A stretch of DNA of 64,000 nucleotides from Thermoplasmata archaeon (GTDB lineage Archaea; Thermoplasmatota; Thermoplasmata; Lutacidiplasmatales; UBA184). The stretch covers positions 24,387 through 88,386 of the forward strand of contig JAKIWS010000002.1 in the NCBI GenBank assembly GCA_022749895.1, read 5' to 3'. A model generated the notes under the pieces. The model was not told the origin of the DNA. It was given only the letters and a program-made list of their open reading frames with translations, and did not search any database. The position numbers and the translations under genes are program-made. Positions 4,226 to 42,856 of the stretch are shown piece by piece. Each line of letters starts with the position of its first letter. The first letter of the stretch is position 1.

Positions 4226-4248
4226 GGGCGGCGGGCACCAACGCCACC

Positions 4249-6385: not shown

Positions 6386-6456
6386 CCGTCCGACGAGGCG
6401 GGGGACTTCACATGACCATTTGCCCCACCCCCCGCGGGGGGAGGGGACGACCGGTC

Positions 6457-6645
6457 CTACGTCGGCGCGAAACGCGGGCAGGCCGATTCGCCGCAGACCG
6501 CGCACGGACCGGTCGGCTCCAGGCGGAACCCGCCGGGACGTCGTTCCTCGACCGGGGCGACCTTCATGTGGTGCGTGGGAAAATGGCCGCAGCGGCAGCG
6601 CGGGTGTCCCGAGGTCGGCGTCGAGGGCGCCGCCCGCTCGGCCAT
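6457..6645 (-). CDS. Possible small Cys/His-rich (zinc-ribbon-like) protein, 62 aa
   Basis: This is the C-terminal tail of ORF 6457..7401, starting at ATG 6645: MAERAAPSTPTSGHPRCRCGHFPTHHMKVAPVEERRPGGFRLEPTGPCAVCGESACPRFAPT. It lies in the gap between two real genes. Coding status is uncertain in GC-rich DNA. Confidence 0.3.
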   Translation of the reverse strand: MAERAAPSTPTSGHPRCRCGHFPTHHMKVAPVEERRPGGFRLEPTGPCAVCGESACPRFAPT

Positions 6646-6729
6646 CGACCCCGCGACGGGGCCCGCTTCTAAAAAGGTGCGGTGGGGACCGGGGCCAAGC
6701 GGTATCTCGGCCGCGGTGGTCGACCGGCC

Positions 6730-11962: not shown

Positions 11963-12185
11963 GGTCCGTTCTCCACCCGTTGTACGCACGAGTCGCCGCT
12001 TAAGCATTCCCCCATCGGTGACCCCGGAGTAAGCAGTCCCGGAGCGGACCCATGTCGCGTGCGAGCGCCTAGGTCGACGGCACAACCCGGGACCCCCCCC
12101 GACGGTCGCTCCTCCGACAGGCGGTGGAGGCTCTCCGCCGGCCCGATAGCGAGGTTCGTACATGGGGGCATAAAGTCGTCCGCCG

Positions 12186-15453: not shown

Positions 15454-16186
15454 GGATCCGCGCGGCCGTGAGGCGCGCGACCCGTCGGGGGCGGTCCCGC
15501 GCGCGATCCGGGGGATCAAGCGGCTCTGGCCGGATCTCGTCGTCGCGACGGACGTCTGCCTCTGCGCCTACACCTCCCACGGTCACTGCGGGGTCCTCAA
15601 AGACGGGCGCGTCGACAACGACGCGACGCTCCCCCTACTGGCCGAGATGGCCGCCGTGCACGCGGCGGCCGGGGCGGATTTCGTCGCGCCGAGCGCCATG
15701 ATGGACCACCAGGTTGCGGCGTTGCGCCACGCCCTGGATGACCAGGGTTTCTCCGGGACCGGCGTCCTCGCGTACGGCGCCAAGTTCGCGTCGGCGTTCT
15801 ACGGACCGTTCCGGGACGCGGCCGATTCCGCCCCCGCCTTCGGGGACCGGCGGGAGTACCAGCTCGACCCGCGCAACGGCCGCGAAGCCGACCGCGAGAT
15901 CGACCTGGATGTCGAAGAGGGGGCGGACATCGTGATGGTCAAGCCCGCGCTCCCCGCGTTGGATATCCTCGCGCGCGCGCGGCAGCGTCACGCGATCCCC
16001 CTCGCCGCGTTCCAGGTCAGCGGGGAGTACGCGATGCTGAAGGCGGCGGGTCGGGCCGGCGCCCTCGACGAAGCGGCCGCCGTGATGGAGAGCCTCACCG
16101 TCATCCGCCGGGCCGGCGCCGACCTCATCGTGACGTACTTCGCTCCCGACGTGGCGCGGTGGGCGCGGCGGTCGGAGGAGCGGTGA
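15215..16186 (+). CDS. hemB: Porphobilinogen synthase (delta-aminolevulinate dehydratase), Zn-type
   Basis: ATG 15215 (MRMRRLRRTSGLRELL) lies inside ORF 14948..16186. The Zn site is DVCLCAYTSHGHCG and the active-site Lys context is IVMVKPALPALD. Confidence 0.9.
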   Translation: MRMRRLRRTSGLRELLAEHDLPVRRLVYPMFVRPGSGAPETIRSLPGIRRYAVDDAVRHAGDAHGQGIPAVLLFGLAHRKDPRGREARDPSGAVPRAIRGIKRLWPDLVVATDVCLCAYTSHGHCGVLKDGRVDNDATLPLLAEMAAVHAAAGADFVAPSAMMDHQVAALRHALDDQGFSGTGVLAYGAKFASAFYGPFRDAADSAPAFGDRREYQLDPRNGREADREIDLDVEEGADIVMVKPALPALDILARARQRHAIPLAAFQVSGEYAMLKAAGRAGALDEAAAVMESLTVIRRAGADLIVTYFAPDVARWARRSEER

Positions 16187-24719: not shown

Positions 24720-25670
24720 GTGTCCCCGCGTCGTTTTTTCGGGCGATTCGCCGAGTTCGTGAACGACTCGGCGATGTGGGGCACGGCGCTCGAGAATCCC
24801 CGGCGCCTCCTGCTCGCCCGCCTCGGGTGGGGCGGGGCGACGCTCCGGTTTCACGGGGGATTCACTCTACCGTATACCCGGCAGAACCGTCCCCTCGTCG
24901 AAGACCTGCTGCGCCTCGCAGTGCCGCACGGGGCCATCTTCGGCGACACGCCGGACCCCATCCTCGGCCGCTGGAGGGTCCAGCTCGCCGACGGGACGAT
25001 CACGACCCCCACGGGACTGAGGTTCACCCTGGACTCGTTCAACGCGACGATCTTCGCGGAGACGTTCATCTACCAAACCCAGTTCCGGGGCTTCGATCTC
25101 TCGAACGCCACCGTCGTCGACGTCGGGGCGAACGTCGGGGACACGGCCCTCTACTACGCGAGCCTCGGCGCGAGCGTCGTCGCCGTCGAGCCCGACCCCG
25201 TGAACTTTGAGCGCCTCCGAAAGAACCTGGCGCTCAACCCTACGCTCTCCGGGAAGATCCGCCCGATCGCCGCGGCCGTCGGCGACGACGGCGAGGTGGA
25301 GTTTCACGCGGGCCTCGGCGGCGGGAGCGGCCTCTACGCGGCCGGGGGTCGGACAGTGCGGGTTCGGTCGATGAGCCTCGGCACCCTCCTCGCGGAAAGT
25401 GGATGGGACGCACCCTTCCTCCTCAAGTGCGACTGCAAGGGCTGCGAGTTCACGCTCGTTCGGGACCCGGCACTACGCCGGTTCCGGAACGTCGCGATCG
25501 AGTACGCGGTCTTCCACCCCACCGACCGGCCCGAGGCGATCCACACGGCCCTGGGCGAGCTCGGATTCACGCGGCGCCGCGTGTACAAGCACAATTTCGG
25601 CGCGTACACGTTCGGCGAGTACGGAACGATCCACGCCCAGCGGGACGAGGCCCCGAGGGGCCCCGACTAG
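24720..25670 (+). CDS. FkbM-family SAM-dependent methyltransferase
   Basis: ORF 24720..25670. VVDVGANVGDTALYYASLGASVVAVEPDPVNFERLRKN and LKCDCKGCEF are typical of FkbM. Confidence 0.8.
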   Translation: MSPRRFFGRFAEFVNDSAMWGTALENPRRLLLARLGWGGATLRFHGGFTLPYTRQNRPLVEDLLRLAVPHGAIFGDTPDPILGRWRVQLADGTITTPTGLRFTLDSFNATIFAETFIYQTQFRGFDLSNATVVDVGANVGDTALYYASLGASVVAVEPDPVNFERLRKNLALNPTLSGKIRPIAAAVGDDGEVEFHAGLGGGSGLYAAGGRTVRVRSMSLGTLLAESGWDAPFLLKCDCKGCEFTLVRDPALRRFRNVAIEYAVFHPTDRPEAIHTALGELGFTRRRVYKHNFGAYTFGEYGTIHAQRDEAPRGPD

Positions 25671-26362
25671 CGATAGATCGAATCGGCCGACTCGGCGCCG
25701 TTACGGCGTCGGGCCGCCGCGGCCTGCGACCGGAGCTCCCGCGCGAGCGATTCGCCGAGCGGCGTCAATCGGTACACCTTGAGCCGGCGGGGCTGCCCGC
25801 GCACGTGCGCGCGGCCGACAGTGAGCACCCCGGCGGCCTCGAGCCGCTGGAGGACCTTCGTGAGCGAGGTCTGGGCCGCCCCGAGGTCCGCGACCATCCC
25901 CATTTGGGAGAGCCCCGGAGGCGCCACCTCGTTCGGGGGGAGGAACCCCTGCCCGGCGATGTGCAGCACGACCCGTTGCGACAACCGGAGGACCTCCCGC
26001 TTGAGCCGAACCGGTTCGGGCGCCGGTTCTCCCGGTGGCGCCGCGCGTCCGTTCCGGAGATCCGTCCCCGCAGGGGGTGCGGGAGATGCCGGCCCGGCCG
26101 TCGTCGGTCCCCGCCCGGGGGGTGAGGAGAACCCGGCGTCGAACGACGGCTCTCCGTGCGGCGACGGGACCGCCGACGCCGCGGCGGGTGGCCGCACACC
26201 CTCGTGGTCGCCCCGGCTCGGATCGAAGGCGGTCGACGCGGGCCCGACAGCTTCCGGGGTCGGGGCCGTGCGCAGCCGTCGGATCAGGAGCCACACGCCC
26301 ACGCCGGCGGCCGTGAGGCCCGCGCCCGCCACGAATCCTACCAGCTCCGACGTGAGGTCCAT
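25667..26362 (-). CDS. Membrane-tethered winged-helix (MarR/TrmB-like) DNA-binding protein
   Basis: ATG 26362 lies inside ORF 25667..28930. An N-terminal TM helix (LVGFVAGAGLTAAGVGVWLLI, then RRLR) is followed by a roughly 90-aa Pro-rich linker. The C-terminal wHTH reads GLSQMGMVADLGAAQTSLTKVLQRLEAAGVLTVGRAHVRGQPRRLKVYRLTPLG. It begins 18 nt after the stop of the giant Kelch gene. Confidence 0.6.
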   Translation of the reverse strand: MDLTSELVGFVAGAGLTAAGVGVWLLIRRLRTAPTPEAVGPASTAFDPSRGDHEGVRPPAAASAVPSPHGEPSFDAGFSSPPGRGPTTAGPASPAPPAGTDLRNGRAAPPGEPAPEPVRLKREVLRLSQRVVLHIAGQGFLPPNEVAPPGLSQMGMVADLGAAQTSLTKVLQRLEAAGVLTVGRAHVRGQPRRLKVYRLTPLGESLARELRSQAAAARRRNGAESADSIYR

Positions 26363-26379
26363 GGTGCTTCGTGTCGAAG

Positions 26380-29300
26380 TTACGTCCGGTCGTCCGGCTC
26401 CGCGGCCCCCTCGTTGTTCCGAAGCCCCCGGACGATCTCCGCACCTTCCCACCGGAGCCGCCGTCGTCGCCAGTACGCCCCGATCACGACGGCGGCGAAC
26501 ACCGCCCCGGCGACGGCCCCCGGGAGAACGCCGCCCGCGAGACCGAGCAGCGAGCCGGTTCCGCCCGGTGGGGTCGGGTTCCCGGGCGGCCCCGCCTCGA
26601 CGACGACCGAGGCCATCGCCGAGGTCGGCCGCCCGAGCGCGTCCGTCACGTTGAGATGGACCGTGAAGGTCCCCACGACGGAGGGGGAGCAGGTGAGCGC
26701 CGGGGCGTTCACGGAACTGCAACCGGCCGGAAGCCCCGCGTACAGGTAGCGGAGCGGCGCGACGCCACCCGCGGTCGCCACGACGAACGTCACGGGATGA
26801 CCGACGACGACGGTCGAAGGGTCGGCGAGGAAGGCGGAGATGCTCGGGCCGGCGCCGATCCGCGACGGGACGACGTTGAGCGCGGTGTGGACGCCGGCGC
26901 GGTGCCCCGCGAGGTCGAACGTCACGACGTAGACGTTGAACGCCCCGGTCGCCGTGGGCGTGCACGGCAGCGCCGAGGCGTTCGCGGAGAGGCAGCCGGC
27001 CGGGAGGCCCTGGTAGGCGTATCCGAGGGGACCGACGCCCCCCGTCGCAACGACGAGGAGCACCGTCGATTCCCCGATCGCCAGGACGGCGGGCGCCGCG
27101 GTGAACGAGGAGATGAGCGCCCCACCCCCCCCGCCGACCGGGTAGATGGTGACGTTCGCGAAGGCGACGGCGGTTCGCCCGGCGGTATCCGTGACCACGA
27201 CCTCGACGGTGGGGCTCCCGGCGGTCGTCGCCGTGCACGGGAGGGACGAACGGTTGGCGGTCGCGCAGCCGGCGGGCAGGCCTTGGTAGGCGTACGCAAG
27301 AGGGCCGCTCCCGCCCCGCGCGGTCGCCCCGAAGTTGGTCGTGTTTCCGAGGACGAGGGCGTTCGGCGCGGCCGCGAAGGCGAAGATCTCCGGGCCGCCG
27401 AGCGCTCCGCGGGGTACGACCACCAATCCGGCACTCGCCGTCGCCGCGGAACCCGGAGCGTCGGTGACCGTCACCGTGATCGTGTAGTTGCCGGTCACGT
27501 TCGGATAGCACGGCAACACCACGACGTTCTGCGACGGGCATCCGGGCGGCAAGCCCGAGTAACTGTACGCGATCGGGGGAGTTCCTCCCATCACCTGAGC
27601 CGCGAGCAGCGTCCGATTCCCGACCAGGTCGGGGTTGGCGCTCACGGTGAAGGAGCCGATCGTGGGCACCGGGTTGACCTGCACCGTCGCGAGCGCCTGC
27701 GCGTAGTTTCCGTGCACGTCGGTCACCCGCACCGTGACCGGGTAGGTCCCGGCCGATGTCGGGGTGCAGGCGAGCGTCGAGAGGTTCGCGGATAGGCATC
27801 CCGGCGGAAGACCCGCGTACACAAAGGTGAGCGACCCCACGCCGCCGCCGGCGGAGGCGGCCAGTTGAAGCGACTGGCCGACGTCCGTAGCGGCCGGGAG
27901 CGCCCGGAAGCTCGCGATGTACGGCCGGTTGCCGCCACCGGCCGACCAGGCCCACGCGTCGCCGCAGACTTCCCGGCACTGCGGCGGCTCGCCGTTGTAG
28001 AGGCTGTAGCCTTGACCGAACGCTCCGCCGAAGACGAGCGCCGAGGCGTCGGCCGTGTCGACGGCGGACGCGGCCTCGGAGCGGTTGAACGGCCCGGTAC
28101 TCGGGAACTGCTCGGTCCAGCTGCCGTTCGCGTACGTCCAGGTATCCGCGAGCCATTGGCCGACGGAGGGGGAACGACCTCCCCACAGGACCACGTACGG
28201 GCCCGGGGCGTAGTACGTGAGCACGCCCGCGGCGCGGGCCGGCGGCGCGCCCACGACCCGGCTGGTCAGATTGGTCCAGTTCGCCGACTGGAACTTCCAG
28301 GTCTCGCGGCTGGGACTCGGCCAGCCCCCGGACGAGGAGGGAACGGTGCCGAAGAGGAGGACGTAGCCGTCGGTCGCGTCGTACGTGATCTGGCCGGGCA
28401 TCGCACTGTGGGGAGCGGTCCGGAGGTGCGAGGTGAGATTCGTCCACGTCCCCGCGTGGAACGTCCACGTGTCGTTGTACCCGCCGGGCGACGAGCTCCC
28501 TTCCGCGTAGTACGGGAATCCTCCGAACAGCAGGATGTCTCCCGCGGCGCCATCGTACAGGAGGTCCGTCCCGCTCCGGTTCGACGGCGCTACGAGCGGC
28601 GTGAGCCGCGACCAGTTGCCGCTGACGAACTCCCAGGTATCCCCGAGAGCCCGACCCGCGGCACCGTACCCCCCGAACAGGACGACGTACCCATCGGCGG
28701 CATCGTAGGCCATCCCGGCGCCGTCGCGCGCGGCCGGTCCGGGGCGTCCGGTAAGCTCGGTCCACACCCCGCCCCGGAACGTCCACGTGTCGTTGAGGGG
28801 CGTCCACACGACGGCGGGGCTGCCAGCGAGACGATACCCCCCGAATAGGACGACCTCGCCATCGGCCGCATCGTACGTCATGCGCGCGTCGGCCCGGGCC
28901 GATGGAACCGCGGTCGTCCGATTGGTCCACGCCCCCGCCGTGAACGACCAGGTGGGGGCCTGTCCGCCCGGAGGCTGCGCGATGCTCCCGAGAAGGAGCG
29001 CGTAGTGGTCGGCCAGGTCGTAGCCGAAGGCGGGACCGAAGCTCGACGGAGGGGAGATCGTCGGTGAGATTGTCTTCCAGACGCCGGCATGGAAGCTCCA
29101 GGTACGGAGCTGGGCCCCCGTCGAGTTGGTCACGAGGAGCACCACGCCGTCGGCGGGATCGTCGACGAGCCCCGCCCGGGGGTGGTTGGAGACGGGTGGC
29201 CCTGGCACAGCGAGCGGGGTCCAGTGACCGGAGCCAAACGTCCAGGTCGAGTTGTCGGGCTGCCCGGACGTTAGGATGCCCCCAAACAAGACCACGTTGG

Positions 29301-30225
29301 CGTCAGCGGAGTCGAAGGTGATGGCCCCACCATACCGCGCCGGTGGCGCTGTGGTGAGGTTGGCGGAGAGGTTGTTCCAGACGCCCCCCGAGAACGACCA
29401 AGTGTCGTTCAGGTAGGTGAATCGGGAACCGGCCGCGTAGTAACCTCCGAAGAGGAGGAGGTAGCCATCGGCGTTGTCGTACGCCATCATCGGAAGGTAG
29501 CGGGGGGACGGTCGAGGCACGGGGCTGACCTGGTTCCACTGACCCGAGGCGAAGGTCCAGGTCTGATTCGCGGACGGGCAGGCGGGCTGGGTCCCGGCGA
29601 CGTTCGCCGCCCCAAAGAAGACGACCACGCGGTCGAGCGCGTCGTACGCGAGCGCCGACCCGGGGCAATCCGTCGGCTGGAGGTTGGAGAGGATCGGGCT
29701 CCATCGCCCGGCGGCGTAGCTCCACGAGGAGCTGACGTCGTTCGAGGTCGCAGAATACGGGTTGGGTCCGTCCAGGAGCACGACCATGTTGTCCGCGAGG
29801 TCGAACGTCAGGAGCGAATTCTGGAATCCGGCCGGTTCCGTACTCACGGGTCTCCACCCGGCCGGCCCCCCCACGGCGGGCAGGCGGGCTGCGGCATGGG
29901 GTGTGCACCGACTCGACGTTCCGCCGCTCGAGCAACTCCAGGATTGCCCCCCGGCGGGACCCTCGCCGTGCGCGAGAGCCGCCGTGGCCCGGAGGATCGC
30001 GCCCGAGGCCGTCGCGGTGGCGAGATGCGCGGGAGAGACCGCGCGAAGATGCGGGGCGGTGACGTCGGAAGCGCGAGTCCCCTCCGGCCAGGCGAGGGTC
30101 AGGACGGCGACCAGGCCCAGGACCAACAGCATCGAGCCGAGGGTCCGCCGCCGACCGGCGGGCAAGCGTACCCGATGGGTCGGGTGGGGGTCGCGACTAC
30201 CGTTCGCCGTGGTCCCCCGGCTCAC
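26380..30225 (-). CDS. Giant surface protein: signal/TM, about 12 Kelch blades (two propellers), five Ig-like repeats, C-terminal TM anchor
   Basis: ORF 26380..30279. I count 12 blade cores of the type MAYDAADGYVVLFGG...W. Five repeats with YxYxGLPxGC follow. The C-terminal span LPGAVAGAVFAAVVIGAYW is followed by RRRR. The start is set at in-frame GTG 30225, 27 nt downstream of a TATA-like box. GTG 30279 is the alternative. Confidence 0.8.
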   Translation of the reverse strand: MSRGTTANGSRDPHPTHRVRLPAGRRRTLGSMLLVLGLVAVLTLAWPEGTRASDVTAPHLRAVSPAHLATATASGAILRATAALAHGEGPAGGQSWSCSSGGTSSRCTPHAAARLPAVGGPAGWRPVSTEPAGFQNSLLTFDLADNMVVLLDGPNPYSATSNDVSSSWSYAAGRWSPILSNLQPTDCPGSALAYDALDRVVVFFGAANVAGTQPACPSANQTWTFASGQWNQVSPVPRPSPRYLPMMAYDNADGYLLLFGGYYAAGSRFTYLNDTWSFSGGVWNNLSANLTTAPPARYGGAITFDSADANVVLFGGILTSGQPDNSTWTFGSGHWTPLAVPGPPVSNHPRAGLVDDPADGVVLLVTNSTGAQLRTWSFHAGVWKTISPTISPPSSFGPAFGYDLADHYALLLGSIAQPPGGQAPTWSFTAGAWTNRTTAVPSARADARMTYDAADGEVVLFGGYRLAGSPAVVWTPLNDTWTFRGGVWTELTGRPGPAARDGAGMAYDAADGYVVLFGGYGAAGRALGDTWEFVSGNWSRLTPLVAPSNRSGTDLLYDGAAGDILLFGGFPYYAEGSSSPGGYNDTWTFHAGTWTNLTSHLRTAPHSAMPGQITYDATDGYVLLFGTVPSSSGGWPSPSRETWKFQSANWTNLTSRVVGAPPARAAGVLTYYAPGPYVVLWGGRSPSVGQWLADTWTYANGSWTEQFPSTGPFNRSEAASAVDTADASALVFGGAFGQGYSLYNGEPPQCREVCGDAWAWSAGGGNRPYIASFRALPAATDVGQSLQLAASAGGGVGSLTFVYAGLPPGCLSANLSTLACTPTSAGTYPVTVRVTDVHGNYAQALATVQVNPVPTIGSFTVSANPDLVGNRTLLAAQVMGGTPPIAYSYSGLPPGCPSQNVVVLPCYPNVTGNYTITVTVTDAPGSAATASAGLVVVPRGALGGPEIFAFAAAPNALVLGNTTNFGATARGGSGPLAYAYQGLPAGCATANRSSLPCTATTAGSPTVEVVVTDTAGRTAVAFANVTIYPVGGGGGALISSFTAAPAVLAIGESTVLLVVATGGVGPLGYAYQGLPAGCLSANASALPCTPTATGAFNVYVVTFDLAGHRAGVHTALNVVPSRIGAGPSISAFLADPSTVVVGHPVTFVVATAGGVAPLRYLYAGLPAGCSSVNAPALTCSPSVVGTFTVHLNVTDALGRPTSAMASVVVEAGPPGNPTPPGGTGSLLGLAGGVLPGAVAGAVFAAVVIGAYWRRRRLRWEGAEIVRGLRNNEGAAEPDDRT
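26599..27924 (-). repeat. Five tandem coding repeats (83-92 aa each) forming Ig-like domains inside the giant Kelch protein
   Basis: The repeat boundaries were counted from the protein sequence. Each unit carries (F/Y)xYxGLP(P/A)GC...L(x)C(T/Y/S)P...G.(Y/F).V.V.V.D..G. Confidence 0.75.
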
Positions 30226-30248
30226 AGCGGCGGGGAGCGGCCGGGCGG

Positions 30249-30256
30249 GTAAAAAG
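30249..30256 (-). promoter_or_regulatory. TATA-like box (CTTTTTAC on minus strand) 27 nt upstream of GTG 30225
   Basis: The minus strand reads GGGGCTTTTTACCCGCC. The spacing matches the other putative promoters in the window. Confidence 0.35.
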
Positions 30257-30364
30257 CCCCGAGGGGAGATACGGCGCACTTATGGTCCGTTTCGGGGGGC
30301 GGCTCGGTGGACGGGACCCGGGGCGACCCGATCCCCCGCCTTCCGTCCGGGAGGCGCCGGGACG

Positions 30365-31090
30365 TCAGAGACCCATCGGCGCCACGATCACCGGGGCGGC
30401 GCACGACGGGCACTTCGGGTTGTCCGGTGACAGCGTCGCGATGTCGATGCGCGCTCCGCAGTACGGGCAGACGATCCGGTCCATCAGCGACGCGACCGTC
30501 ACCTGCTGGCGGAGGTCGCGTTGGCGGTTGCGGATCCGGTAGTAGGCGACCGCGCTTTGGGCGAAGGAGACCACCGCCGGGGCGCCGGGGACCGGACTCC
30601 AGACCATCGTCGGGGCCCGGCTCGACCCGAGCAGCCCCGTCTTGCTCCCGGCAGGAGGCGGTGCGAGATGAAAGACGACCGTCGCGGATTTCTTCGTCAT
30701 CGAGACGCTCGTGATCTGATCGTAGGAGACGCTCTGGAAGTCGCTCCCGGAGCGCGTGAGAACGCGCTGGTCGGTCATCGCGTAGGCGACGCGCGACCAC
30801 AGGCCGAGGACGATGAAGATCGGAAGGGCGAAGAGGAACAGGGCGAAGATCCCGGCGCCGAGGTTGGCCCCCTGGTCCTGGGGCTGGGTCGCGACGACCA
30901 GGGCGAACAGCAGCACGAAGATTCCGAAGACGAAGATGATCACCCAGCGCCCCGTGGAGATCTTCGGTCGCGTTTCGTAGAGGACCTTCTCCCCGCCTTG
31001 CAGCGCGGTGACGGGAAACACGCCGGTCCGGCTGGTCGGGGGACGCACCCGTTCCAGTTCCGCTTCCGATGACGGAAGGTACCCGCCCAT
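30365..31090 (-). CDS. Membrane protein: 2 TM helices, PH-like (bPH/YdbS-type) domain, C-terminal zinc ribbon
   Basis: ORF 30365..31090. GEKVLYETRPK is followed by a two-TM hairpin, then YAMTDQRVLTRSG...SVSYDQITSV (bPH-like). The C-terminal zinc ribbon reads CPYCGARIDIATLSPDNPKCPSC. Confidence 0.6.
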   Translation of the reverse strand: MGGYLPSSEAELERVRPPTSRTGVFPVTALQGGEKVLYETRPKISTGRWVIIFVFGIFVLLFALVVATQPQDQGANLGAGIFALFLFALPIFIVLGLWSRVAYAMTDQRVLTRSGSDFQSVSYDQITSVSMTKKSATVVFHLAPPPAGSKTGLLGSSRAPTMVWSPVPGAPAVVSFAQSAVAYYRIRNRQRDLRQQVTVASLMDRIVCPYCGARIDIATLSPDNPKCPSCAAPVIVAPMGL

Positions 31091-31112
31091 CCGGTCGCGC
31101 GAACCCGAGTGG

Positions 31113-31119
31113 ATTATTT
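31113..31119 (-). promoter_or_regulatory. TATA-like box (AAATAAT on minus strand) 26 nt upstream of ATG 31090
   Basis: The minus strand reads CTCCAAATAATCCACTC. This implies a separate, probably leaderless, transcript start for 30365..31090. Confidence 0.45.
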
Positions 31120-31222
31120 GGAGATATCTGGATTCAGAACCGGCGAGCCTTCCGAGGGGTCGCGGCCCTTTCCGGGAGTTTCGCCCGGCGGTACCGGGGC
31201 GCCCCGCCGATTTCCCGGAAGT

Positions 31223-33202
31223 CTACCCCGTGCCCGGGAGCGGTTGTCCGCAGTTCGAACAGAACCGGACCCGCATCGTCATCAGGCTCCCGCACCGCGG
31301 GCATTTCTGGACCTGGGCGCCGATCCGAGCGCTCCCCGTGCCCGCGCGGGTCGGCGACGGGGGAGGGCGTGCCGGACCCGGGGCCAGCGGATCGTTGCTC
31401 GGCAGGGAAGGCGACGCGGGGGCCGCGGGAGTCATGCCGAAGATAGCGGCCACCATCGGCGAGAGGATCCACCGGGGTGCGTTCGGATGGAGCAAGATCG
31501 CGCGGGCCTGATCGACGGTGACCAGGATCGCCCCCACCATGGGGGTCTTTCCGGGGTACGTGTAGGTGAACACGAACCGCCCGCGGCGGGCGGGGAATCG
31601 CGCCGGCTCAAGATACGCCCACGGAATTCGTAGATCGCTCTTCGAGCGTCGGACGATGACCCCCGACGCGCAGGTGCCGACCGATCGCGTCACCGACCGT
31701 CCGGACGAATAGATCACGGAGAACGGCAGGAGCAGGAGTATCACAAACGCGGGCAACAACAGGAGGGCGGCCCCAGCGGCCCCGGAGCCACTCGCGGCGA
31801 GCGGGATGATCAGGATCGCGATGAGGAACAGGGTGAAGATCGTGAGGAAGACGCCGGATACGACCCCGTCGCGATAGAGCGCCCACCGGCCCACCGTCGG
31901 GACCCAGCGTACCTCGCTGTCGGGCGGCGGCGGGAACAGCGCCTGGAGGGCGCGCTCCCGGCGACGCCGACTCCGATGGCCGGCGAGGATGGCGACCGCG
32001 AACGTGACCGGGAAGACGAGCGCGAAGATCAGGAACGCGCCCCCGAACCCGTTCGACTTCGGGTTCAGCAGCGACCAGTTCCCGTGAACGTACGTCCAGG
32101 TCCCGTCGGTCACGCCCGACGGCTCGCCGCCGGTCGCCACCAGAAGGTACCCGTCGGCGGCGTCGAACGCCATCGCCCCGGCGTAGAGGCCGTCCGGAAA
32201 CTCGTTCGCGGTGAGCCGGCTCCAATGCCCGCTGGCCAACGACCAGACGTCGCCGAAGTACGTCCCGTAGGCGTAGCCCCCGGCGAGGACCAGGTTCCCG
32301 TCCAGGGGGTCCTCCGCGAACATCGCCCCGTGGCGGGGCGACGGCGCCGTGCCCGCGCTCGCCGTCAGATTCGTCCAGACCCCGTGGCCGTAGCTCCAGG
32401 TGTCGCCGATGTTCGACCCGTTGAGCCCCCCGAACAACACGACCGGAACTGTCGATCCGCCGGCGAGAGAAGCATCGAGACGACCGATCGGGCGGGCCCC
32501 CGTGATGTTCGACGCGAGGTTCGTCCAATGCCCGTGCCCGAACGACCACGCGTCCGACAACGTCTGGGGAGTCGCGCCCCCGAGAGACCCTCCGAAGAGG
32601 AGGGCGTAGCCGTCCGGTCCGTCCCACGTCATCGCGGCACGACCGCGGGCGGAGGGAGCGACCCCGGCCGTCGCCGAAAGGTCGGTCCAGTGACCCCCTT
32701 GGAAGACCCACGTGTCGGCGAGCGCGGGGTAGCAGCTCAGCGTCACGCAGCCGCCGAAGAGGAGCAATTGCTGGTCGGCCGCATCATAGACCATGGACCC
32801 GGCCCAGCGGGCGGGGGGGTACTTCGCGAGCTGGCCGGAAAGGTCCGTCCACGTGCGGTTGTGGTACGTCCACGTCGCCGACGTCGCCGAACCGCTGGAG
32901 TCGAGGCCGCCGAACATGACCACGTACCCGTCGACCGCATCGTACGCCATCGAGGCGAACTCGATGTAGGGCGGATTCGTCGCGAGATTCGCCGGGCGCG
33001 ATCCCTCCACTCCGGCGAGGCCGCAGGCACGGTCGGCGGGAGTCGCGCAGAGGCCGGCCCGAGATGGTTCCCCCCCCAGCCCTGGGAGGGAGTGCGCGCT
33101 CGCGATTGTCGGCGGGGGACTCGGGGGAGCAAAGCGGGTCCCGCCGGCACCGGGCGTGAAGGTTCCCACGGCCAGCACGACGAGGGCGGCGAGGACGATC
33201 AC
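31223..33202 (-). CDS. Kelch-propeller ectodomain protein with TM segments, cytoplasmic PH-like region and C-terminal zinc ribbon
   Basis: ORF 31223..33202 (GTG start). A signal-like MIVLAALVVLAVGTF precedes about 6 Kelch blades (MAYDAVDGYVVMFGG, MVYDAADQQLLLFGG, MTWDGPDGYALLFGG ...). After a TM helix followed by HRSRRRRE comes a second two-TM hairpin, and the protein ends CPRCGSLMTMRVRFCSNCGQPL. Confidence 0.75.
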   Translation of the reverse strand: MIVLAALVVLAVGTFTPGAGGTRFAPPSPPPTIASAHSLPGLGGEPSRAGLCATPADRACGLAGVEGSRPANLATNPPYIEFASMAYDAVDGYVVMFGGLDSSGSATSATWTYHNRTWTDLSGQLAKYPPARWAGSMVYDAADQQLLLFGGCVTLSCYPALADTWVFQGGHWTDLSATAGVAPSARGRAAMTWDGPDGYALLFGGSLGGATPQTLSDAWSFGHGHWTNLASNITGARPIGRLDASLAGGSTVPVVLFGGLNGSNIGDTWSYGHGVWTNLTASAGTAPSPRHGAMFAEDPLDGNLVLAGGYAYGTYFGDVWSLASGHWSRLTANEFPDGLYAGAMAFDAADGYLLVATGGEPSGVTDGTWTYVHGNWSLLNPKSNGFGGAFLIFALVFPVTFAVAILAGHRSRRRRERALQALFPPPPDSEVRWVPTVGRWALYRDGVVSGVFLTIFTLFLIAILIIPLAASGSGAAGAALLLLPAFVILLLLPFSVIYSSGRSVTRSVGTCASGVIVRRSKSDLRIPWAYLEPARFPARRGRFVFTYTYPGKTPMVGAILVTVDQARAILLHPNAPRWILSPMVAAIFGMTPAAPASPSLPSNDPLAPGPARPPPSPTRAGTGSARIGAQVQKCPRCGSLMTMRVRFCSNCGQPLPGTG

Positions 33203-33380
33203 GCTCTCCCCAAGTCGACCGGAGAGACGGTCGAATGTTCGCGGGGCCGGGTCGGGGGGCGTCGTCGGGGCCGAGAACCGGTCTCAGGTGATGAACCTTC
33301 GGGGGACCGGCGCGCGGCCATTTCGAGGCCACCGGGGCGGCGTTTCGACGCCCGAAGGGGAATCGACCGCTCCGTCGAGG

Positions 33381-33638
33381 TCAACGTCGATGGACGATTC
33401 GATTGTGGTCGCGGAACGCCGCCGGCGAGTTGAAGAGTTTCTGACACGGGTCGCACCGGAGCGGTGGCCGACGTGGCGCGGCCGGCGCGTCATCGCCGCC
33501 GGCGGCAGCGTGCACCTTGACGCGGTGGGAGTCCAGCGCATCGCCCGATCGGAACGTCATCCCGCAATCGGAGCAGACGGCCTCCACTTCGTCGTACTCG
33601 ATGTAGGGCATCGGCGCCCGGAAGGGCGGGCCTCTCAT
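33381..33638 (-). CDS. Small protein with two C2H2-type zinc fingers
   Basis: ORF 33381..33638 (alternative ATG 33611). The fingers are CSDCGMTFRSGDALDSHRVKVH and CDPCQKLFNSPAAFRDHNRIVH, both fitting CxxC-x12-Hx4H. Confidence 0.55.
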   Translation of the reverse strand: MRGPPFRAPMPYIEYDEVEAVCSDCGMTFRSGDALDSHRVKVHAAAGGDDAPAAPRRPPLRCDPCQKLFNSPAAFRDHNRIVHRR

Positions 33639-33723
33639 CTCCGTTCCTGCCTCCGACCGAAGGCCGATCCGCGACGGGGCGGGCCCGGCGCCGAACCTCT
33701 GGCCGACCCGTATCGAGCGCCGA

Positions 33724-34407
33724 TCAACCGGGAAAGGCCCGGAGCGGCACCCCCATCCGGAATCCCTGGTCGGCCGGGGCCTTCTCGCACAGGATGCGGG
33801 CGTCCCGCCAGCTCGCGGAATCCTTCGAACGCACTTCGAAGACGTAGTCGTAGAGGAACCGGTCCTTCCGAGGATGATCGAGCAGTGTCACGACGGCCGT
33901 GAGCCGCTCGCGCTTCCACACGTCGAGGATCGGCTGCGAGCTCGCGTCGTCGTCGGGGTAGAACGCGATAAGGCGGTCGGCGTTCGCCACCACGAAGACC
34001 GCCGGGTGACCTTCGCTCGGTGCGTTCCCGATGATCTCCTGCAGGAGCTGGGGGAGGCGGAGGAAATCCATGAGAGGATGGAGGACCTCGATCGGTTCAT
34101 CGGCACGGACGACCGACCACATCGCCAGGTTCGCGAGGGCGTGCGACGGCTCGAGGTCGGCCGGGGGGATCGTTCGGTACAACATGGTGTCGGGAACCAG
34201 CCCGTTCCGCGACGGATCCTCCGGATCGACGTCGTCACCGGAACTTCCGATGTCGATCCAGGCGTAGCGCGCCTGCACGCGGTGCACCACTTCGAAGGCG
34301 GCGCGGTTGACGGCGAGGCGAGCGTCACCCCAGATCCAAATATTGCAAGGCCCCCGCGTCATGCGGGGCGAGATCCACTCGGGGACCCCAGGGCCGAGGC
34401 CGGGCAT
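33724..34407 (-). CDS. Hypothetical protein, possibly a degenerate (P-loop-less) RecA/KaiC-like fold
   Basis: ORF 33724..34407. I recognised no motif with certainty. NIWIWGDARL sits where a Walker A strand-loop would be, and VFVVANADRLIAFY resembles a Walker B strand. Confidence 0.45.
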   Translation of the reverse strand: MPGLGPGVPEWISPRMTRGPCNIWIWGDARLAVNRAAFEVVHRVQARYAWIDIGSSGDDVDPEDPSRNGLVPDTMLYRTIPPADLEPSHALANLAMWSVVRADEPIEVLHPLMDFLRLPQLLQEIIGNAPSEGHPAVFVVANADRLIAFYPDDDASSQPILDVWKRERLTAVVTLLDHPRKDRFLYDYVFEVRSKDSASWRDARILCEKAPADQGFRMGVPLRAFPG

Positions 34408-34741: not shown

Positions 34742-34908
34742 TGGTGGGAGCAGGGGGATTTGAACCCCCATATGCGGGTCTCTCCGCGCGCTCCAGTCAA
34801 TCGTCATCGGACCGCGCCGGGCGGTCCTCCGCAGACCCAACTTCGCAGGATCGCCTTGCGGCAAACCTGACTGGAGCCCGCTGGTCTACCAGATTAGCCT
34901 ATGCTCCC
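34742..34908 (-). tRNA. tRNA-Trp (anticodon CCA) with a 91-nt intron at the canonical 37/38 position (34780..34870) and encoded 3' CCA
   Basis: Hand-folded. The acceptor is GGGAGCA/UGCUCCC, the anticodon stem GCGGG/CCCGC, the loop CUCCAG|intron|A, and the T arm GGGGG-UUCAAAU-CCCCC, followed by A-CCA. A bulge-helix-bulge forms from CUCC:GGAG (4 bp) flanked by the 3-nt bulges AG|U and AG|A. The D stem has one C:A mismatch. Confidence 0.85.
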
Positions 34909-38529: not shown

Positions 38530-39372
38530 CAGCGAGCGGACGTTCAGCGGCGGATCATCCGCCTCCCCCAGGTCCGCGAGAAGCCGAGGAAGCTCCGGCG
38601 CGCTGACGAAGACGGTCGTCGAGATCCCGAGGCGGGACGCCTCTCGACTCGCCGCCCCGACACCGAATCGCTGGATCGGTTCGGAGGTGGCGCGCCGCGC
38701 GAGGTGGTAGGCTTCCAGCCCGACGGCGGCCAGGATCCCGTCGTGGCGGGGAGCGACCCAGGGACGGATCCGCGCCAGGAGTCGAGGATCGTCGACGCGC
38801 TGGGGATCGACCACAAGCACATCGACGCGGCCCGGCGCCAGGGGAACGATTCCTTCGAGGTCGTCGACCTCGACGAGCGCTCCCGGACGCGCGGCGGCCC
38901 GGGCCCGCCCGGTCGAGGAGCCGGTCGCCCCGGGACGGGCCGTGAGCAGCCCGTGTTCGAGGGTCAGGGTCACGGGCTCCCCCGCCCGCAGCGGGGATGG
39001 GGCCAGAGCCCGACAACTTCGGATGACGCGGAGCCGGCGCAGCCGCTCGACGAGATCGTCCTGGACGTCGCCCAAGCGCGAGTGGAGCCAGTCGACGCCG
39101 GCGACCGTCGGTCGATACCGGCCATCCCGGCTCTCGACGAGGCCCCGGCGGGCGAGAGCGCGGTAGGCGTGGGACGCGGCCTGGACGGTGACCCCGAGGA
39201 GGTCGGCGATCGGGCGGAGCCGCGTCGGGGGGGCGGTCGTGCATTCGTAGAGGAAGAGGAGCTCCGTGACCTCCGCTCGGCGGCGGAGGCCGGCGAGCCC
39301 TTTCCGGATCGTCGCGGGAGCGTGGGGGGCCGAAAGGCGGCCGGACGCCGCGGCACGGGGCACCCCCGTCAC
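38464..39372 (-). CDS. Winged-helix transcriptional regulator with uncharacterised C-terminal domain
   Basis: This is the C-terminal part of ORF 38464..41955. GTG 39372 overlaps the uvrB stop (GTGA). The wHTH reads ELLFLYECTTAPPTRLRPIADLLGVTVQAASHAYRALARRGLVESRDGRYRPT. Confidence 0.55.
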   Translation of the reverse strand: MTGVPRAAASGRLSAPHAPATIRKGLAGLRRRAEVTELLFLYECTTAPPTRLRPIADLLGVTVQAASHAYRALARRGLVESRDGRYRPTVAGVDWLHSRLGDVQDDLVERLRRLRVIRSCRALAPSPLRAGEPVTLTLEHGLLTARPGATGSSTGRARAAARPGALVEVDDLEGIVPLAPGRVDVLVVDPQRVDDPRLLARIRPWVAPRHDGILAAVGLEAYHLARRATSEPIQRFGVGAASREASRLGISTTVFVSAPELPRLLADLGEADDPPLNVRSLLPDAPDRVRHRRVSGPKGSGA

Positions 39373-41438
39373 GATTCCGCTGCCTTCGCGCCGCGGCCCC
39401 GCCCGGCGTGCGCGGCGACGGCGACCTTGAGCTGACGTTCCAGGTCGCGGATGCGGTCCCGGATCCGGGCCGCCTCCTCGAAATCGAGCCGCTCGGCCGC
39501 GATGCGCATCTCCTCTTCGAGGTTGGCCAGGAGCAACGGCAGGCGCTGCTGCCACTTCGGTCCCATCCGCGAGGTCGAGAGCTCCCCGGACGCCGCCTCC
39601 GCGTCCGGTTCGAGCAGGGACCGGATCTCCTTCCGGATCGATTCGGGGACGATCCCGTGCTCCCGGTTGTACGCGACCTGGACCTCGCGTCGCCGGGCCA
39701 TCTCCGCGATCGCCCGCTGCATGGAGCCCGTCACCTTGTCGGCGTAGAGGATGACCCGGCCCATGACGTTGCGCGAGGCACGGCCGGACGTCTGGATGAG
39801 GGACGTCTCGCTCCGAAGGTAGCCTTCCTTGTCGGCGTCCAGGATCGCGACCAAGCTCACCTCCGGGAGGTCGAGGCCTTCCCGGAGGAGGTTGATGCCG
39901 ACGAGGATGTCGAACTCGCCGAGCCGAAGGTCGCGGAGGATCTCGATCCGCTTGAGCGTCTCGACGTCCGAGTGCAGGTAGCGGACCTTGAATCCCAGGT
40001 TCGCGAGATAGCTCGCCAGCTCCTCCGACGTCGACTTGGTGAGGGTGGTGACGAGCGCGCGGTCTCCGCGGGCGATGACGGAACGAAGCTCGCCGACGAG
40101 GTTCTCGATGTGACCTTTCAGCGGCCGGACCTCGATCTCGGGGTCGACGAGGCCGGTGGGCCGGATGATCTGCTCGACCACGCCCCGGGAGACCTTCCGC
40201 TCGAACGGGCCGGGGGTGGCGGAGACGAACACCGCCTGCGGGACCTTGCCCAGAAACTCCGGGAACTTGAGCGGTCGGTTGTCGCGCGCCGAGGGGAGCC
40301 GCCAGCCGAAGTCGACGAGGTTGTCCTTCCGGCTCCGGTCGCCCTTGTACATCCCCTCGAGCTGCGGAATCGTGACGTGCGACTCGTCGACGAAGGCGAG
40401 GAAGTCGTCGGGGAAGAAGTCGAGCAGCGTGTACGGCGGCTCGCCCGGCTTGCGGCCCGCGAAGTACCGGGAGTAGTTCTCGATCCCTCCGGTGTAGCCG
40501 GTCTCGCGGATCATCTCGAGGTCGTAATCCGTGCGTCCGCGCAGGCGCTGCGCCTCCACGATCTTCTCCTGCGCTATCAGTTCGGCGACGCGGGCCTCCT
40601 TCTCCTGGTTGATCTCGGCGAGGATCCGCTCGAGCTTCTCGTCCGCGCTCAGGAAGTGGGTCGCGGGAAAGACGACGAGCTCGTCGATCTCGCGCCGTTC
40701 CTCCTGCGTGACCTTGTCGAGCTCGGTGATGCTCTCCACGCGGTCGCCGTCGAAGACGATCCGGTGGAGCGAGTCGCCGGCGCCCAGGAGGTCGAGCGTC
40801 CCGCCGCGGACGCGGAAGCGCCCGCGCTTGAGCTCGATATCGTTGCGCTGGTAGCGCATCCGGATCAGGCGCTCGATGAACGCCCGGCGGCCGAGCTCCT
40901 CGTCCCGCTTCAAGTGCAGGACGTTCGCGCCGTAGTCCTCGGGCGAGCCCAACCCGTAGATGCAGCTCACCGAGGCGACGATGAGCACGTCGCGCCGCGT
41001 CATGAGCGCCTGCGTCGCCCGGTGGCGGAGTTTCTCGATCTCCTCGTTGATGGAGGCGTCCTTCTCGATGTAGAGGTCCGTCTGCGGGACGTACGCTTCC
41101 GGCTGGTAGTAGTCGTAGTAGCTCACGAAGTACTCGACGGCGTTGCGCGGGAACAGGGCCCGGAACTCGCTCACCAGTTGCGCGGCCAACGTCTTGTTGG
41201 GTGAGATGACGATCGTCGGGCGCTGCAGCTGCGCGACGATGTGCGCCATCGTGAACGTCTTGCCGGACCCCGTGACGCCGAGGAGCGTGACGTACTTCTC
41301 GGGCGTCCGAAGGCGCTCGACCGCTTCGGCGATCGCCTTCGGCTGATCCCCTTGCGGGACGAGTTCCGTCTCGAGCTGGAAGCGCCCCTGCAGGCGCCGC
41401 GACGACGCCGGTTGGGAGCGCGACGCAGCGGCGGCCAC
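39369..41438 (-). CDS. uvrB: Excinuclease ABC subunit B
   Basis: ORF 39369..41438 (GTG start). Family strings are GVTGSGKTFTMA, DESHVTIPQ, the helicase motifs and a C-terminal UVR domain (LEEEMRIAAERLDFEEAARIRDRI). Confidence 0.95.
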   Translation of the reverse strand: MAAAASRSQPASSRRLQGRFQLETELVPQGDQPKAIAEAVERLRTPEKYVTLLGVTGSGKTFTMAHIVAQLQRPTIVISPNKTLAAQLVSEFRALFPRNAVEYFVSYYDYYQPEAYVPQTDLYIEKDASINEEIEKLRHRATQALMTRRDVLIVASVSCIYGLGSPEDYGANVLHLKRDEELGRRAFIERLIRMRYQRNDIELKRGRFRVRGGTLDLLGAGDSLHRIVFDGDRVESITELDKVTQEERREIDELVVFPATHFLSADEKLERILAEINQEKEARVAELIAQEKIVEAQRLRGRTDYDLEMIRETGYTGGIENYSRYFAGRKPGEPPYTLLDFFPDDFLAFVDESHVTIPQLEGMYKGDRSRKDNLVDFGWRLPSARDNRPLKFPEFLGKVPQAVFVSATPGPFERKVSRGVVEQIIRPTGLVDPEIEVRPLKGHIENLVGELRSVIARGDRALVTTLTKSTSEELASYLANLGFKVRYLHSDVETLKRIEILRDLRLGEFDILVGINLLREGLDLPEVSLVAILDADKEGYLRSETSLIQTSGRASRNVMGRVILYADKVTGSMQRAIAEMARRREVQVAYNREHGIVPESIRKEIRSLLEPDAEAASGELSTSRMGPKWQQRLPLLLANLEEEMRIAAERLDFEEAARIRDRIRDLERQLKVAVAAHAGRGRGAKAAES

Positions 41439-41441
41439 CGT

Positions 41442-42794: not shown

Positions 42795-42856
42795 GAACCT
42801 GGGCGTAACGCGCTCCCCCCGACGGCTTATCGTTCCCCCGATGCCCTCCGTCGCGT

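Follow-up and report, generated by a model that had tools for sequence, protein, structure and literature searches.

What does a giant surface protein made of Kelch blades and immunoglobulin (Ig)-like repeats have to do with the small, membrane-anchored winged helix-turn-helix (wHTH) protein encoded directly behind it? The question is raised by a 64-kb stretch of DNA (hereafter the window; ~70% GC) from the metagenome-assembled genome (MAG) of an uncultured soil Thermoplasmata archaeon, in which four genes, here called g1 to g4, follow one another on the minus strand. A preliminary description had read these genes as one co-transcribed cluster that joins extracellular propellers to cytoplasmic domains. 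The four co-directional open reading frames (ORFs) are present as described, and their third-position GC of 0.86–0.89 in a genome of 70% GC identifies them as coding sequence. The intergenic gaps g1–g2, g2–g3 and g3–g4 measure 132, 139 and 17 nt, so that tight coupling is seen for g3 and g4 alone; g4 does lie close behind g3 as had been noted, at 17 nt from the g3 stop codon rather than 18. We propose, with a probability of about 0.6, that g3 and g4 constitute a two-protein transmembrane transcription-regulator module, which would autoregulate its own operon and which is conserved in a soil and peat clade of Thermoplasmata; the proposal draws on sequence comparison and structural models. In the following, the surface protein is referred to as partner A and the membrane-tethered winged helix as partner B.

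Partners A and B are strictly co-inherited

The Kelch region of g3 lies well above the profile cut-offs (PF24681, 93.8 bits against 50; Kelch_4, 63.7 bits against 21.6), and its ~12 blades would be enough for two six-bladed propellers. The possibility, raised beforehand, that the Kelch proteins fall into a well-characterised enzyme family is not borne out, the YjhT/NanM mutarotase model TIGR03547 scoring far under its cut-off (15.8 bits against 256). Further along the protein, motif counting locates Y.Y.GLP.GC at residues 801, 887, 978, 1069 and 1160; one of the five repeats is matched by PKD (30.8 bits, cut-off 23.5), and the other four are recognised by internal periodicity and by below-cut-off matches to He_PIG and Big_13. 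Most of the domains first assigned to the four proteins are confirmed by profile searches, with Kelch passing the cut-off in both g1 and g3 and PKD in one g3 repeat. Directly after the C-terminal transmembrane (TM) helix of g3 stands RRRR, with five Arg/Lys just downstream, consistent with the positive-inside rule, and N-glycosylation sequons number 26 in g3, five in g1 and none in g2 or g4. The predicted topology of g3 is coherent: an exported protein, anchored by its C-terminal helix, with a tail of 33 amino acids (aa) inside the cell. Both the basic residues and the distribution of sequons (26 in g3, none in g4) fit the topology proposed for the two partners. An archaeosortase signal of the PGF-CTERM type consists of a short motif (e.g. 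PGF), a TM segment and a few basic residues at the extreme C terminus; no NCBIfam match to such a signal was found at the C terminus of g3, where a conserved tail of 33 aa follows the TM helix.

The AlphaFold model of g4, built with an alignment of 27 homologues, displays a helix (residues 3–31), a disordered segment (32–117) and a winged helix (118–229), the latter composed of helices 118–138, 153–160 and 164–176, a hairpin (180–199) and a C-terminal helix (201–229). The TM segment is conserved and aligns with that of the PKD-fused forms described below, with G13 and W24 nearly invariant in the short and long forms of the family, which speaks against the soluble wHTH protein that had been considered beforehand. 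In several short homologues this segment is weakly hydrophobic and Gly/Ala-rich, and the length of the linker varies from 27 to 133 aa among homologues. The topology predicted for g4 is likewise coherent, with a stub of 8 aa outside, one helix, and the rest of the protein in the cytoplasm (N-out/C-in). When the g4 domain was compared to the PDB with Foldseek, PadR proteins came first (Rv3488, LmrR and B. fragilis PadR; template-modelling scores, or TM-scores, of 0.6–0.7 normalised to the target), followed by MarR/SlyA, and the domain profile matches Rv3488 over nearly its whole length (E 8.8e-6). The domain is predicted to be PadR-like in both fold and sequence, and the wHTH with a single C-terminal helix, the layout of PadR subfamily 2, is present in g4.

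Homologues of g4 were found in 44 clusters, and all those with a taxon name in their source annotation belong to Thermoplasmata. The family has two forms, a short one (TM-linker-wHTH) and one of ~390 aa in which a signal peptide and two PKD domains precede the same TM-linker-wHTH. Four short homologues, retrieved by exact-protein look-up, lie in unrelated neighbourhoods, and each is found immediately 3' of a large exported-protein gene on the same strand (L001 to L004, Table 1); for the g4 product of the window such a look-up yielded no record. In the closest relative, L001, g4 is 71% identical and the flanks are common with those of the window (M29 peptidase, NUDIX, glyoxalase, ATP-binding cassette (ABC) transporter and a small C2H2 zinc-finger gene), and g1 and g2 are absent. 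A further 31 loci were recovered with a conserved wing peptide pattern, using one genome per GTDB species, and all of them are from Thermoplasmata MAGs; loci were examined with flanks of ±8 kb, and the start codons of partner A are predictions. By tblastn, Kelch, Ig or PKD coding sequence is directly upstream of the g4 family, or fused to it, in 35/37 occurrences, and the other two (L004 and L009b) have a large upstream surface-protein gene with the same tail, the ectodomain of L009b being unclassified. The pairing of an extracellular propeller/Ig protein with a membrane-anchored winged helix, first suggested from the window, is therefore a conserved design.

Three architectures were distinguished by tblastn and in-frame translation. 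In the split form, which is that of the window, a surface protein is followed by a short TM-wHTH protein. In the PKD-fused form, encountered in many loci, PKD-PKD-TM-linker-wHTH is encoded by a single ORF with another exported repeat protein before it. Finally, Kelch and Ig/PKD domains, one TM helix, the linker and the wHTH are fully fused into one ORF in L027 and L030, and probably in L026. Third-position GC across the junction is 0.82–0.97 in the fused loci as compared to 0.58–0.66, in that frame, in split loci including the window, which tells true fusions from mere open frames. Some MAGs hold at least two paralogous modules that differ in architecture (L010/L025, L012/L028, L005/L035, L016/L032 and L022/L026, as well as L009 at 8001 and 11823, where the two modules are ~4 kb apart), and each of the paralogous modules of one genome is nearer to modules of other genomes than to its sister. 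An extra gene for an exported protein of ~400 aa, with a C-terminal TM segment and no tail motif, was also observed in PKD-fused loci (L012 ~1614–2819, L015 ~4245–5469, L005, L007 and L016; plus strand).

The part of partner A that faces the cytoplasm has a recurrent layout: the TM helix, an Arg/Lys cluster, the motif E-G-x-x-[W/L/I]-[V/I]-[R/K/Q]-[E/G/D]-[L/M] (in short, RRR…EGxx[W/L]VxEL), 15–25 acidic or Pro-rich residues and the stop codon; in g3 the tail reads ...YWRRRRLRWEGAEIVRGLRNNEGAAEPDDRT. We scanned six frames of 40 loci and the window (~600 kb) with a regular expression that had to be preceded by a hydrophobic stretch and followed by a stop within 60 residues. All matches (24/24) lie at the C terminus of an ORF that directly precedes a g4-family gene; elsewhere in these ~600 kb there is none, be it in g1, a minus-strand Kelch-PKD gene of L001 or a Big_1 protein of the window. 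Looser variants are present in most of the remaining two-gene loci, and the motif is absent from the single-ORF fusions. The tail is kept across ectodomains of Kelch plus Ig domains, a PKD array and, at L004, a faint propeller of the NHL/lactonase type. When a 12-mer of the tail was compared to the cognate wHTH protein, the best ungapped match fell where the C-terminal helix begins (P-x-G-E-x-L-A-R-[E/D]-L-R) in 22/28 loci, with individual scores that are modest and sequences that are related to one another. The resemblance, which we treat as a lead, could reflect helix mimicry, a common origin or chance helix composition. In the window itself, the tail at 26419–26469 (minus strand) resembles 25700–25740 (minus strand), the start of the g4 C-terminal helix (xGExLAR[E/D]LR).

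A module-specific promoter element

In order to compare upstream regions, these were anchored on the predicted starts of partner A, taken as the first start codon with a signal-like segment after it. A shared architecture emerged, consisting of two tandem 11-bp boxes with the consensus GGCGTATCTCC, 11 bp from centre to centre, a G/C-rich spacer of 7–8 nt, a TATA-like box, and the start codon ~25–35 nt further on; the consensus of the full box site is GGCGTATCTCCGGCGTATCTCC, with GTATCT cores. The window has the order ACCATAAGTGC GCCGTATCTCC cctcgggg CTTTTTAC at 30286–30249 (minus strand), then GTG 30225. Over the 200 nt before g3 no 10-mer is lower in GC than this TATA-like box, which lies at -30, is kept in L001 and has equivalents at about -30 in many loci. 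The promoters of L001 and the window differ by one mismatch in the 22-nt boxes and two in the spacer, although L001 has no g2 upstream, which points to a separate promoter for g3-g4 and to a leader that is very short or absent. The shared geometry also supports GTG 30225 as the start of g3, as it had been called originally. We discarded CCCCTCGGGGCTTTTT as a terminator after g2, since the same sequence is found at -30 of the g3 orthologue in L001, where g2 is missing.

A 22-nt weight matrix was derived from 15 sites and 1.2 Mb of strands were scanned with it, giving 23 matches with a score of at least 17 as compared to 0.8 in block shuffles. The g3 promoter of the window, with a score of 21.8, is the sole strong match in the 64 kb. 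Dual boxes with a TATA-like box are found at the 5' end of the module in ~27/36 occurrences, and 12 loci outside the training set carry a match of at least 12 on the strand of the module, where the operon begins. Among PKD-fused loci the box site is located before the extra upstream gene, which points to three-gene operons; in two single-ORF fusion loci the best sites come shortly after the fused gene and in front of additional Kelch genes. An inverted copy, GATACGCC, is present 6–20 nt upstream in about half of the true sites; a test for inverted-repeat enrichment on the upstream regions was negative. Within ~600 kb the boxes were not found at other surface-protein genes, such as the Big_1 gene of the window, g1 and the Kelch-PKD gene on the minus strand of L001.

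The reciprocal search, in which metagenomes were queried with the exact pattern GCGTATCNNNGGCGTATCTYC, gave 45 matches. All six high-GC matches (6/6) have a TATA-like box at the canonical distance, the wHTH family is encoded downstream on the same strand in 4/4 of those with enough downstream DNA, and another of the six codes for a PKD protein. The 39 lower-GC matches include none with a canonical TATA-like box, or with a wHTH or PKD protein downstream, and we rejected them as unrelated to the module; L056, for instance, is a phage-like bacterial region. Two further observations concern the boxes. In L070 (1592 nt) a boxed promoter stands directly before a winged-helix ORF with no surface-protein gene before it, and this ORF contains a stop in frame and what looks like a change of frame, so that it may be a decayed or mis-assembled copy. 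Besides, sites are placed back to back on both strands in L005 (4446 minus, 4465 plus) and L007 (4628 minus, 4647 plus), which suggests divergent promoters around one shared operator region.

Table 1. Features of the g1–g4 region, with window coordinates, and surface-protein genes upstream of four short g4 homologues
Feature	Coordinates	Strand	Details
g1	31223-33202	-	659 aa
g2	30365-31090	-	241 aa
g3	26380-30225	-	1281 aa
g4	25667-26362	-	231 aa
g3 N-terminal hydrophobic signal/anchor	30088-30144	-	aa 28-46, RRR before; hydropathy
g3 Kelch region	27916-29823	-	aa ~135-770; ~12 blades; Pfam and blade motifs
g3 five Ig-like/PKD-like repeats	26581-27903	-	aa ~775-1215; period ~91 aa; two Cys each
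g3 C-terminal TM helix	26482-26538	-	aa 1230-1248; hydropathy
g3 tail motif RRRRLRWEGAEIVRGLR	26419-26469	-	aa 1253-1269, inside the 33-aa tail 26383-26481
Two tandem 11-bp boxes ACCATAAGTGC GCCGTATCTCC	30265-30286	-	candidate operator; proximal box canonical
TATA-like box CTTTTTAC	30249-30256	-	8 nt downstream of boxes, ~28 nt upstream of GTG 30225
g4 N-terminal TM helix core	26282-26338	-	aa 9-27, Gly/Ala-rich, then RRLR; hydropathy
g4 Pro-rich disordered linker	26012-26269	-	aa 32-117 (~86 aa); predicted local distance difference test (pLDDT) ~50-58
g4 winged-helix domain and C-terminal helix (predicted)	25676-26011	-	aa 118-229; pLDDT >94
g1 Kelch, 6 blades	32063-32965	-	Pfam and motif counting (~6)
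g1 first TM	31982-32038	-	aa 389-407, RSRRRRER after it; hydropathy
g1 TM hairpin	31691-31852	-	aa 451-504; hydropathy
g1 Zn ribbon	31238-31309	-	residues 632-655
g2 TM hairpin	30794-30955	-	both ends inside
g2 PH-like domain	30491-30790	-	
g2 CxxC...CxxC Zn ribbon	30392-30475	-	
AT-rich box CTCCAAATAATCC	31111-31123	-	~26 nt before g2 ATG; candidate g2 promoter
L001 upstream partner			Kelch-PKD, 1154 aa; gap 17 nt as in window
L002 upstream partner			Kelch-PKD, 1009 aa
L003 upstream partner			PKD protein, 394 aa
L004 upstream partner			NHL/lactonase-type propeller, 1020 aa; propeller matches faint

The neighbouring pair g1 and g2

The g1 protein carries an N-terminal signal peptide (hydropathy), a Kelch region above cut-off (PF24681, 79.7 bits against 50; Kelch_4, 50.8 bits against 21.6) and an uncharacterised cytoplasmic domain. 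Its zinc ribbon falls just under the Zn_ribbon_3 cut-off (26.3 bits against 27), with its four Cys retained by an orthologue at L040. The predicted topology is coherent, with the propeller outside, one helix, a cytoplasmic loop, a helical hairpin and a cytoplasmic C terminus bearing the zinc ribbon. Right after the first TM segment, at residues ~408–420 (31982–32020, minus strand), we observed RSRRRRERALQALFPPPP, a juxtamembrane basic-plus-helix segment that is conserved in the L040 orthologue and faintly resembles the tail motif of partner A, without the EG core. The tail motif itself and the dual box are both missing from g1.

In g2, the AlphaFold model (pLDDT 76.7) displays a TM hairpin, then a beta-sandwich with a helix as its cap, and finally a zinc ribbon modelled with low confidence. 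The best PDB matches of this model are all PH/PTB folds, with weak E-values (0.03–0.2), and the Pfam scores are below cut-off (bPH_3, 16.9 bits against 23; DUF6585, 20.4 against 27.7). The four Cys of the CxxC...CxxC motif are invariant in 7 homologues, and Pfam zinc-ribbon matches are weak. The protein had been described as having two TM segments, a PH-like domain and a zinc ribbon; the TM hairpin is present and the invariant Cys are compatible with a ribbon, and the profile signals for the PH-like domain and the zinc ribbon are weak. The elements of g2 recur in the same order in the C-terminal half of g1, a shared architecture for which we dropped a reading as homology: the zinc ribbon is the only part that aligns (hhalign probability 49%), with a BLASTP E of 0.004 in the TM region.

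Homologues of g2 are rare, with six others in 5.8 billion clusters. At L040 the start of the g2 homologue overlaps a full-length g1 orthologue (42% identity from the propeller and TM segments through the cytoplasmic domain to the zinc ribbon), and this is the one other locus in which the g1+g2 pair recurs. L036 and L037 encode a Kelch-PKD-TM protein with the tail motif, a PKD-fused wHTH protein and then the g2 homologue, which stands alone in L038 and L039. No g2 homologue was found by tblastn in the 35 wHTH loci, where g1 matches through its Kelch blades only. The AT-rich box CTCCAAATAATCC overlaps the 16-mer with the lowest GC (31112–31127) of 25000–34000, and a CCAAA... box is located ~26–30 nt before the start of g2 in the window and of its homologues in L036, L038 and L040. 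This conserved box before g2-like genes argues that g2 is an independent transcription unit. A box-like AGATATCTCC in the g2 promoter was put down to coincidence, as it is not kept in g2 homologues and TATCTCC occurs 3 times in the window with 3.1 expected. The layout of g1+g2, with a surface Kelch region, the membrane, and cytoplasmic PH-like and zinc-ribbon domains, is analogous to that of g3-g4. Our reading is that g1+g2 represents a second, rarer pair on a similar principle, loosely associated with Kelch surface genes and next to g3-g4 by chance.

Several other genes surround the two pairs. An FkbM-type methyltransferase gene (Methyltransf_21; 24720–25670, plus strand) converges on g4, the stop codons overlapping by 4 nt; at this position L001 has a Methyltransf_24 methyltransferase on the other strand and an extra Kelch-PKD gene of 881 aa. 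Just upstream of g1, 33381–33638 (minus strand) encodes an 85-aa protein with two C2H2-type zinc fingers, and L001 has this small gene in the corresponding position, immediately ahead of its g3 orthologue. A transfer RNA (tRNA) gene at 34745–34908 (minus strand) carries ~95 extra nt around the anticodon loop, which are presumably an archaeal intron; the Rfam tRNA model scores 45.7 bits and ARAGORN misses the gene. Further away, 4670–6853 (minus strand) encodes a probable surface protein of 727 aa with a Big_1 Ig-like domain above cut-off, without the tail motif and without a boxed promoter. The housekeeping context includes glutamyl-tRNA reductase and 5-aminolevulinate (ALA) dehydratase for tetrapyrrole synthesis, UvrB and an Lhr-type helicase (12174–13508 plus, 14798–16186 plus, 39369–41441 minus and 42809–45679 plus).

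Mechanism, alternatives and known systems

In the mechanism that we propose for g3-g4, partner A would expose a large glycosylated ectodomain (two Kelch propellers and five Ig-like repeats) outside the cell, held by its TM anchor and continued by the short conserved tail in the cytoplasm, and the PadR-like winged helix of partner B would reach the DNA from the membrane on a flexible linker of ~86 aa. Partner B may bind the tandem GGCGTATCTCC-type boxes next to the TATA box and in this way autoregulate the g3-g4 operon; since no other DNA-binding protein is conserved in the module, the winged helix is the most economical candidate reader of the boxes. Their position just upstream of the region of the TATA box and B recognition element (BRE) would favour activation, a site beside the TATA box on its upstream side being typical of archaeal activators. 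Partner A could then control partner B through contact of their TM helices and/or docking of its tail onto B, and the state of the ectodomain, be it ligand, contact or assembly, would thereby be reported to transcription. Glycans or proteins are common ligands of propeller and PKD domains, and with several paralogous modules per genome and different ectodomains, a sensor family fits better than a purely structural role. A fuller version, possible but speculative, is that of a lineage-specific modular signalling in which interchangeable Kelch, NHL and PKD receptors carry a tail that mimics the C-terminal dimerisation helix of partner B. Receptor state would gate dimerisation and binding to the tandem boxes, paralogous pairs would each drive their own operon, and g1/g2 would provide a second output class on the same kind of receptor.

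Several points weigh against the two-protein regulator module. The whole argument is built on sequence analysis of uncultured organisms, and the strict peptide pattern used to recover loci leaves the range of the family and its exceptions under-sampled. The g4 domain stays under the cut-off of the Pfam PadR model PF03551 (18.5 against 27 bits, E 2e-3, residues 164–206), and most homologues consequently carry no Pfam annotation. The operator of the window itself is a weak variant, in which the proximal box is the only canonical one. More generally, the element is mainly a direct repeat, with the extra inverted box at roughly half of the sites, whereas the usual target of PadR proteins is an inverted repeat, bound by a symmetric dimer, and a different, unlinked factor could be the binder of the boxes. 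Finally, distances between tails and between wHTH cores are correlated (Mantel r = 0.59, reached by 0/2000 permutations), but linkage by itself would make neighbouring genes diverge together, and what this correlation documents is long-standing linkage, not necessarily contact.

With these points in mind, other readings of the locus have to be considered. It is rather doubtful that g4 is an ordinary local regulator, anchored in the membrane and sensing membrane state or a small ligand as a classical PadR, next to a g3 ectodomain that is structural or adhesive and conveys no signal. PadR proteins are typically ligand-responsive local repressors, the g4 fold matches PadR, the short form of g4 has an extracellular stub of 8 aa only, and the boxes are at the regulator's own operon; however, this would leave unexplained both the partner-specific tail kept across unrelated ectodomains and the repeated, independent fusions of an ectodomain to the wHTH. 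The long, disordered linker of variable length (27–133 aa) would also suit regulated proteolysis, whereby partner A holds the winged helix inactive at the membrane until a signal triggers cleavage in the linker or TM helix and a soluble factor is released. Membrane sequestration followed by release is a known logic, for example in anti-sigma and regulated intramembrane proteolysis (RIP) systems. Yet no protease gene is conserved in the module and the fused linkers of 27–29 aa in L026 and L027 leave little room for cleavage, and we consider proteolysis unlikely. That the winged helix is no transcription factor at all, and tethers DNA or a cytoplasmic partner under a surface structure while the boxes belong to an unlinked regulator of surface genes, would agree with a direct-repeat layout that is atypical for PadR. 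We regard this as very improbable, given that within ~600 kb the boxes are specific to the module and not found at g1, the L001 minus-strand Kelch-PKD gene or the Big_1 gene of the window, and that the g4 domain retains the recognition-helix and wing signatures of PadR.

The reading put forward in the preliminary description, in which all four genes form one co-transcribed sensing or adhesion system with g1 and g2 as integral parts, can call upon the co-directional genes, upon the g2 homologue that comes right after Kelch-PKD and long-form wHTH genes in L036/L037, and upon g1 and g2 being together again in L040. It nevertheless appears distinctly improbable: L001 has syntenic flanks and lacks g1 and g2, 0/35 wHTH loci have a g2 homologue, g2 and g3 have separate conserved promoter boxes, g2 is alone in L038/L039, and g1 is devoid of tail motif and dual box. 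The conserved four-gene unit therefore has to be abandoned, with the g1+g2 pair found elsewhere at L040 alone. The four genes are two separate pairs, and probably three transcription units.

How new, then, is the two-protein module of g3 and g4? Transmembrane transcription regulators, defined by a DNA-binding domain and at least one TM region, are widespread, with about four per archaeal genome in one census (PMC10269533), and g4, with its predicted DNA-binding domain and TM helix, would belong among them; censuses based on Pfam miss the g4 family because its winged helix is below cut-off. The statement that the locus matches no described archaeal system consequently applies to the g3-g4 family and not to the principle, since archaeal transmembrane transcription regulators have already been described (PMC10269533, PMC6396743). 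In the open-access literature we found no description of Kelch/PKD proteins coupled to a winged helix in Thermoplasmata, and the Lutacidiplasmatales genome paper does not mention Kelch and PKD proteins. The principle of a tethered regulator is already known, and the g3-g4 family itself looks previously undescribed. Archaeal signal transduction is poorly mapped and soil and peat Thermoplasmata are known from metagenomes only; in this context the module offers a concrete example of how a wall-less archaeon could link surface events to gene expression, with three defined parts, a tail peptide, a predicted DNA-binding domain of ~110 aa and a candidate operator of 22 bp. The varied ectodomains on a constant tail suggest a sensor family with different specificities, whose ligands would tell what these abundant archaea perceive in soil.

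Among bacterial systems, the module resembles ToxR/ToxS (described in PMC7496328), TcpP/TcpH and VtrA/VtrC, in which a winged helix on one TM segment is encoded adjacent to, and co-transcribed with, a single-pass partner thought to modulate it, with direct repeats beside the promoter. The ToxR-like layout, an N-terminal wHTH of the OmpR/PhoB type and a C-terminal periplasmic sensor, was not found in g4, where the wHTH is PadR-like and C-terminal (N-out/C-in) and 8 aa are outside. Contact is made through the periplasmic domain in the ToxR-type proteins, whereas a short g4 without ectodomain would depend on its TM helix or a cytoplasmic tail. The g3 partner moreover has a giant interchangeable ectodomain, and the module sits in an archaeal host, behind a TATA/BRE promoter. 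Closer in taxonomy, ArnR and ArnR1 of Sulfolobus acidocaldarius are experimentally studied archaeal membrane-bound one-component regulators (PMC6396743); they likewise are membrane-tethered transcription factors and regulate cell-surface structures. They differ in domain order and sensor, are not known to have a separate surface partner and belong to Thermoproteota, and no sequence relationship to g4 could be shown.

The HAAS-PadR dyads of bacterial envelope stress (PMC11237479) also couple a PadR-like wHTH genomically to a membrane signalling partner and have been proposed as an alternative to two-component systems. There, a soluble PadR is combined with a helical HAAS partner, as opposed to the tethered g4 and its short-tailed partner without HAAS; no Pfam match to a HAAS (DUF1700/DUF1129-like) domain was obtained in g3 or g4 at E <= 0.1. 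With PadR subfamily 2 (Rv3488, LmrR), g4 has in common a wHTH with a single C-terminal helix and the signature R-x-K-x-Y-x-L-T-x-x-G, but those proteins are soluble, ~110 aa long, ligand-binding and palindrome-recognising, and g4 has an N-terminal TM helix and a linker of 86 aa. A last comparison is provided by RsgI/SigI of cellulolytic clostridia, which are bacterial and without homology to g3 or g4, and in which the output is an alternative sigma factor freed from an anti-sigma domain. In contrast to this difference in output, their overall organisation recalls that of the archaeal modules: paralogous single-pass sensors, several per genome, join varied extracellular modules to a constant intracellular part, and each has its own regulon.

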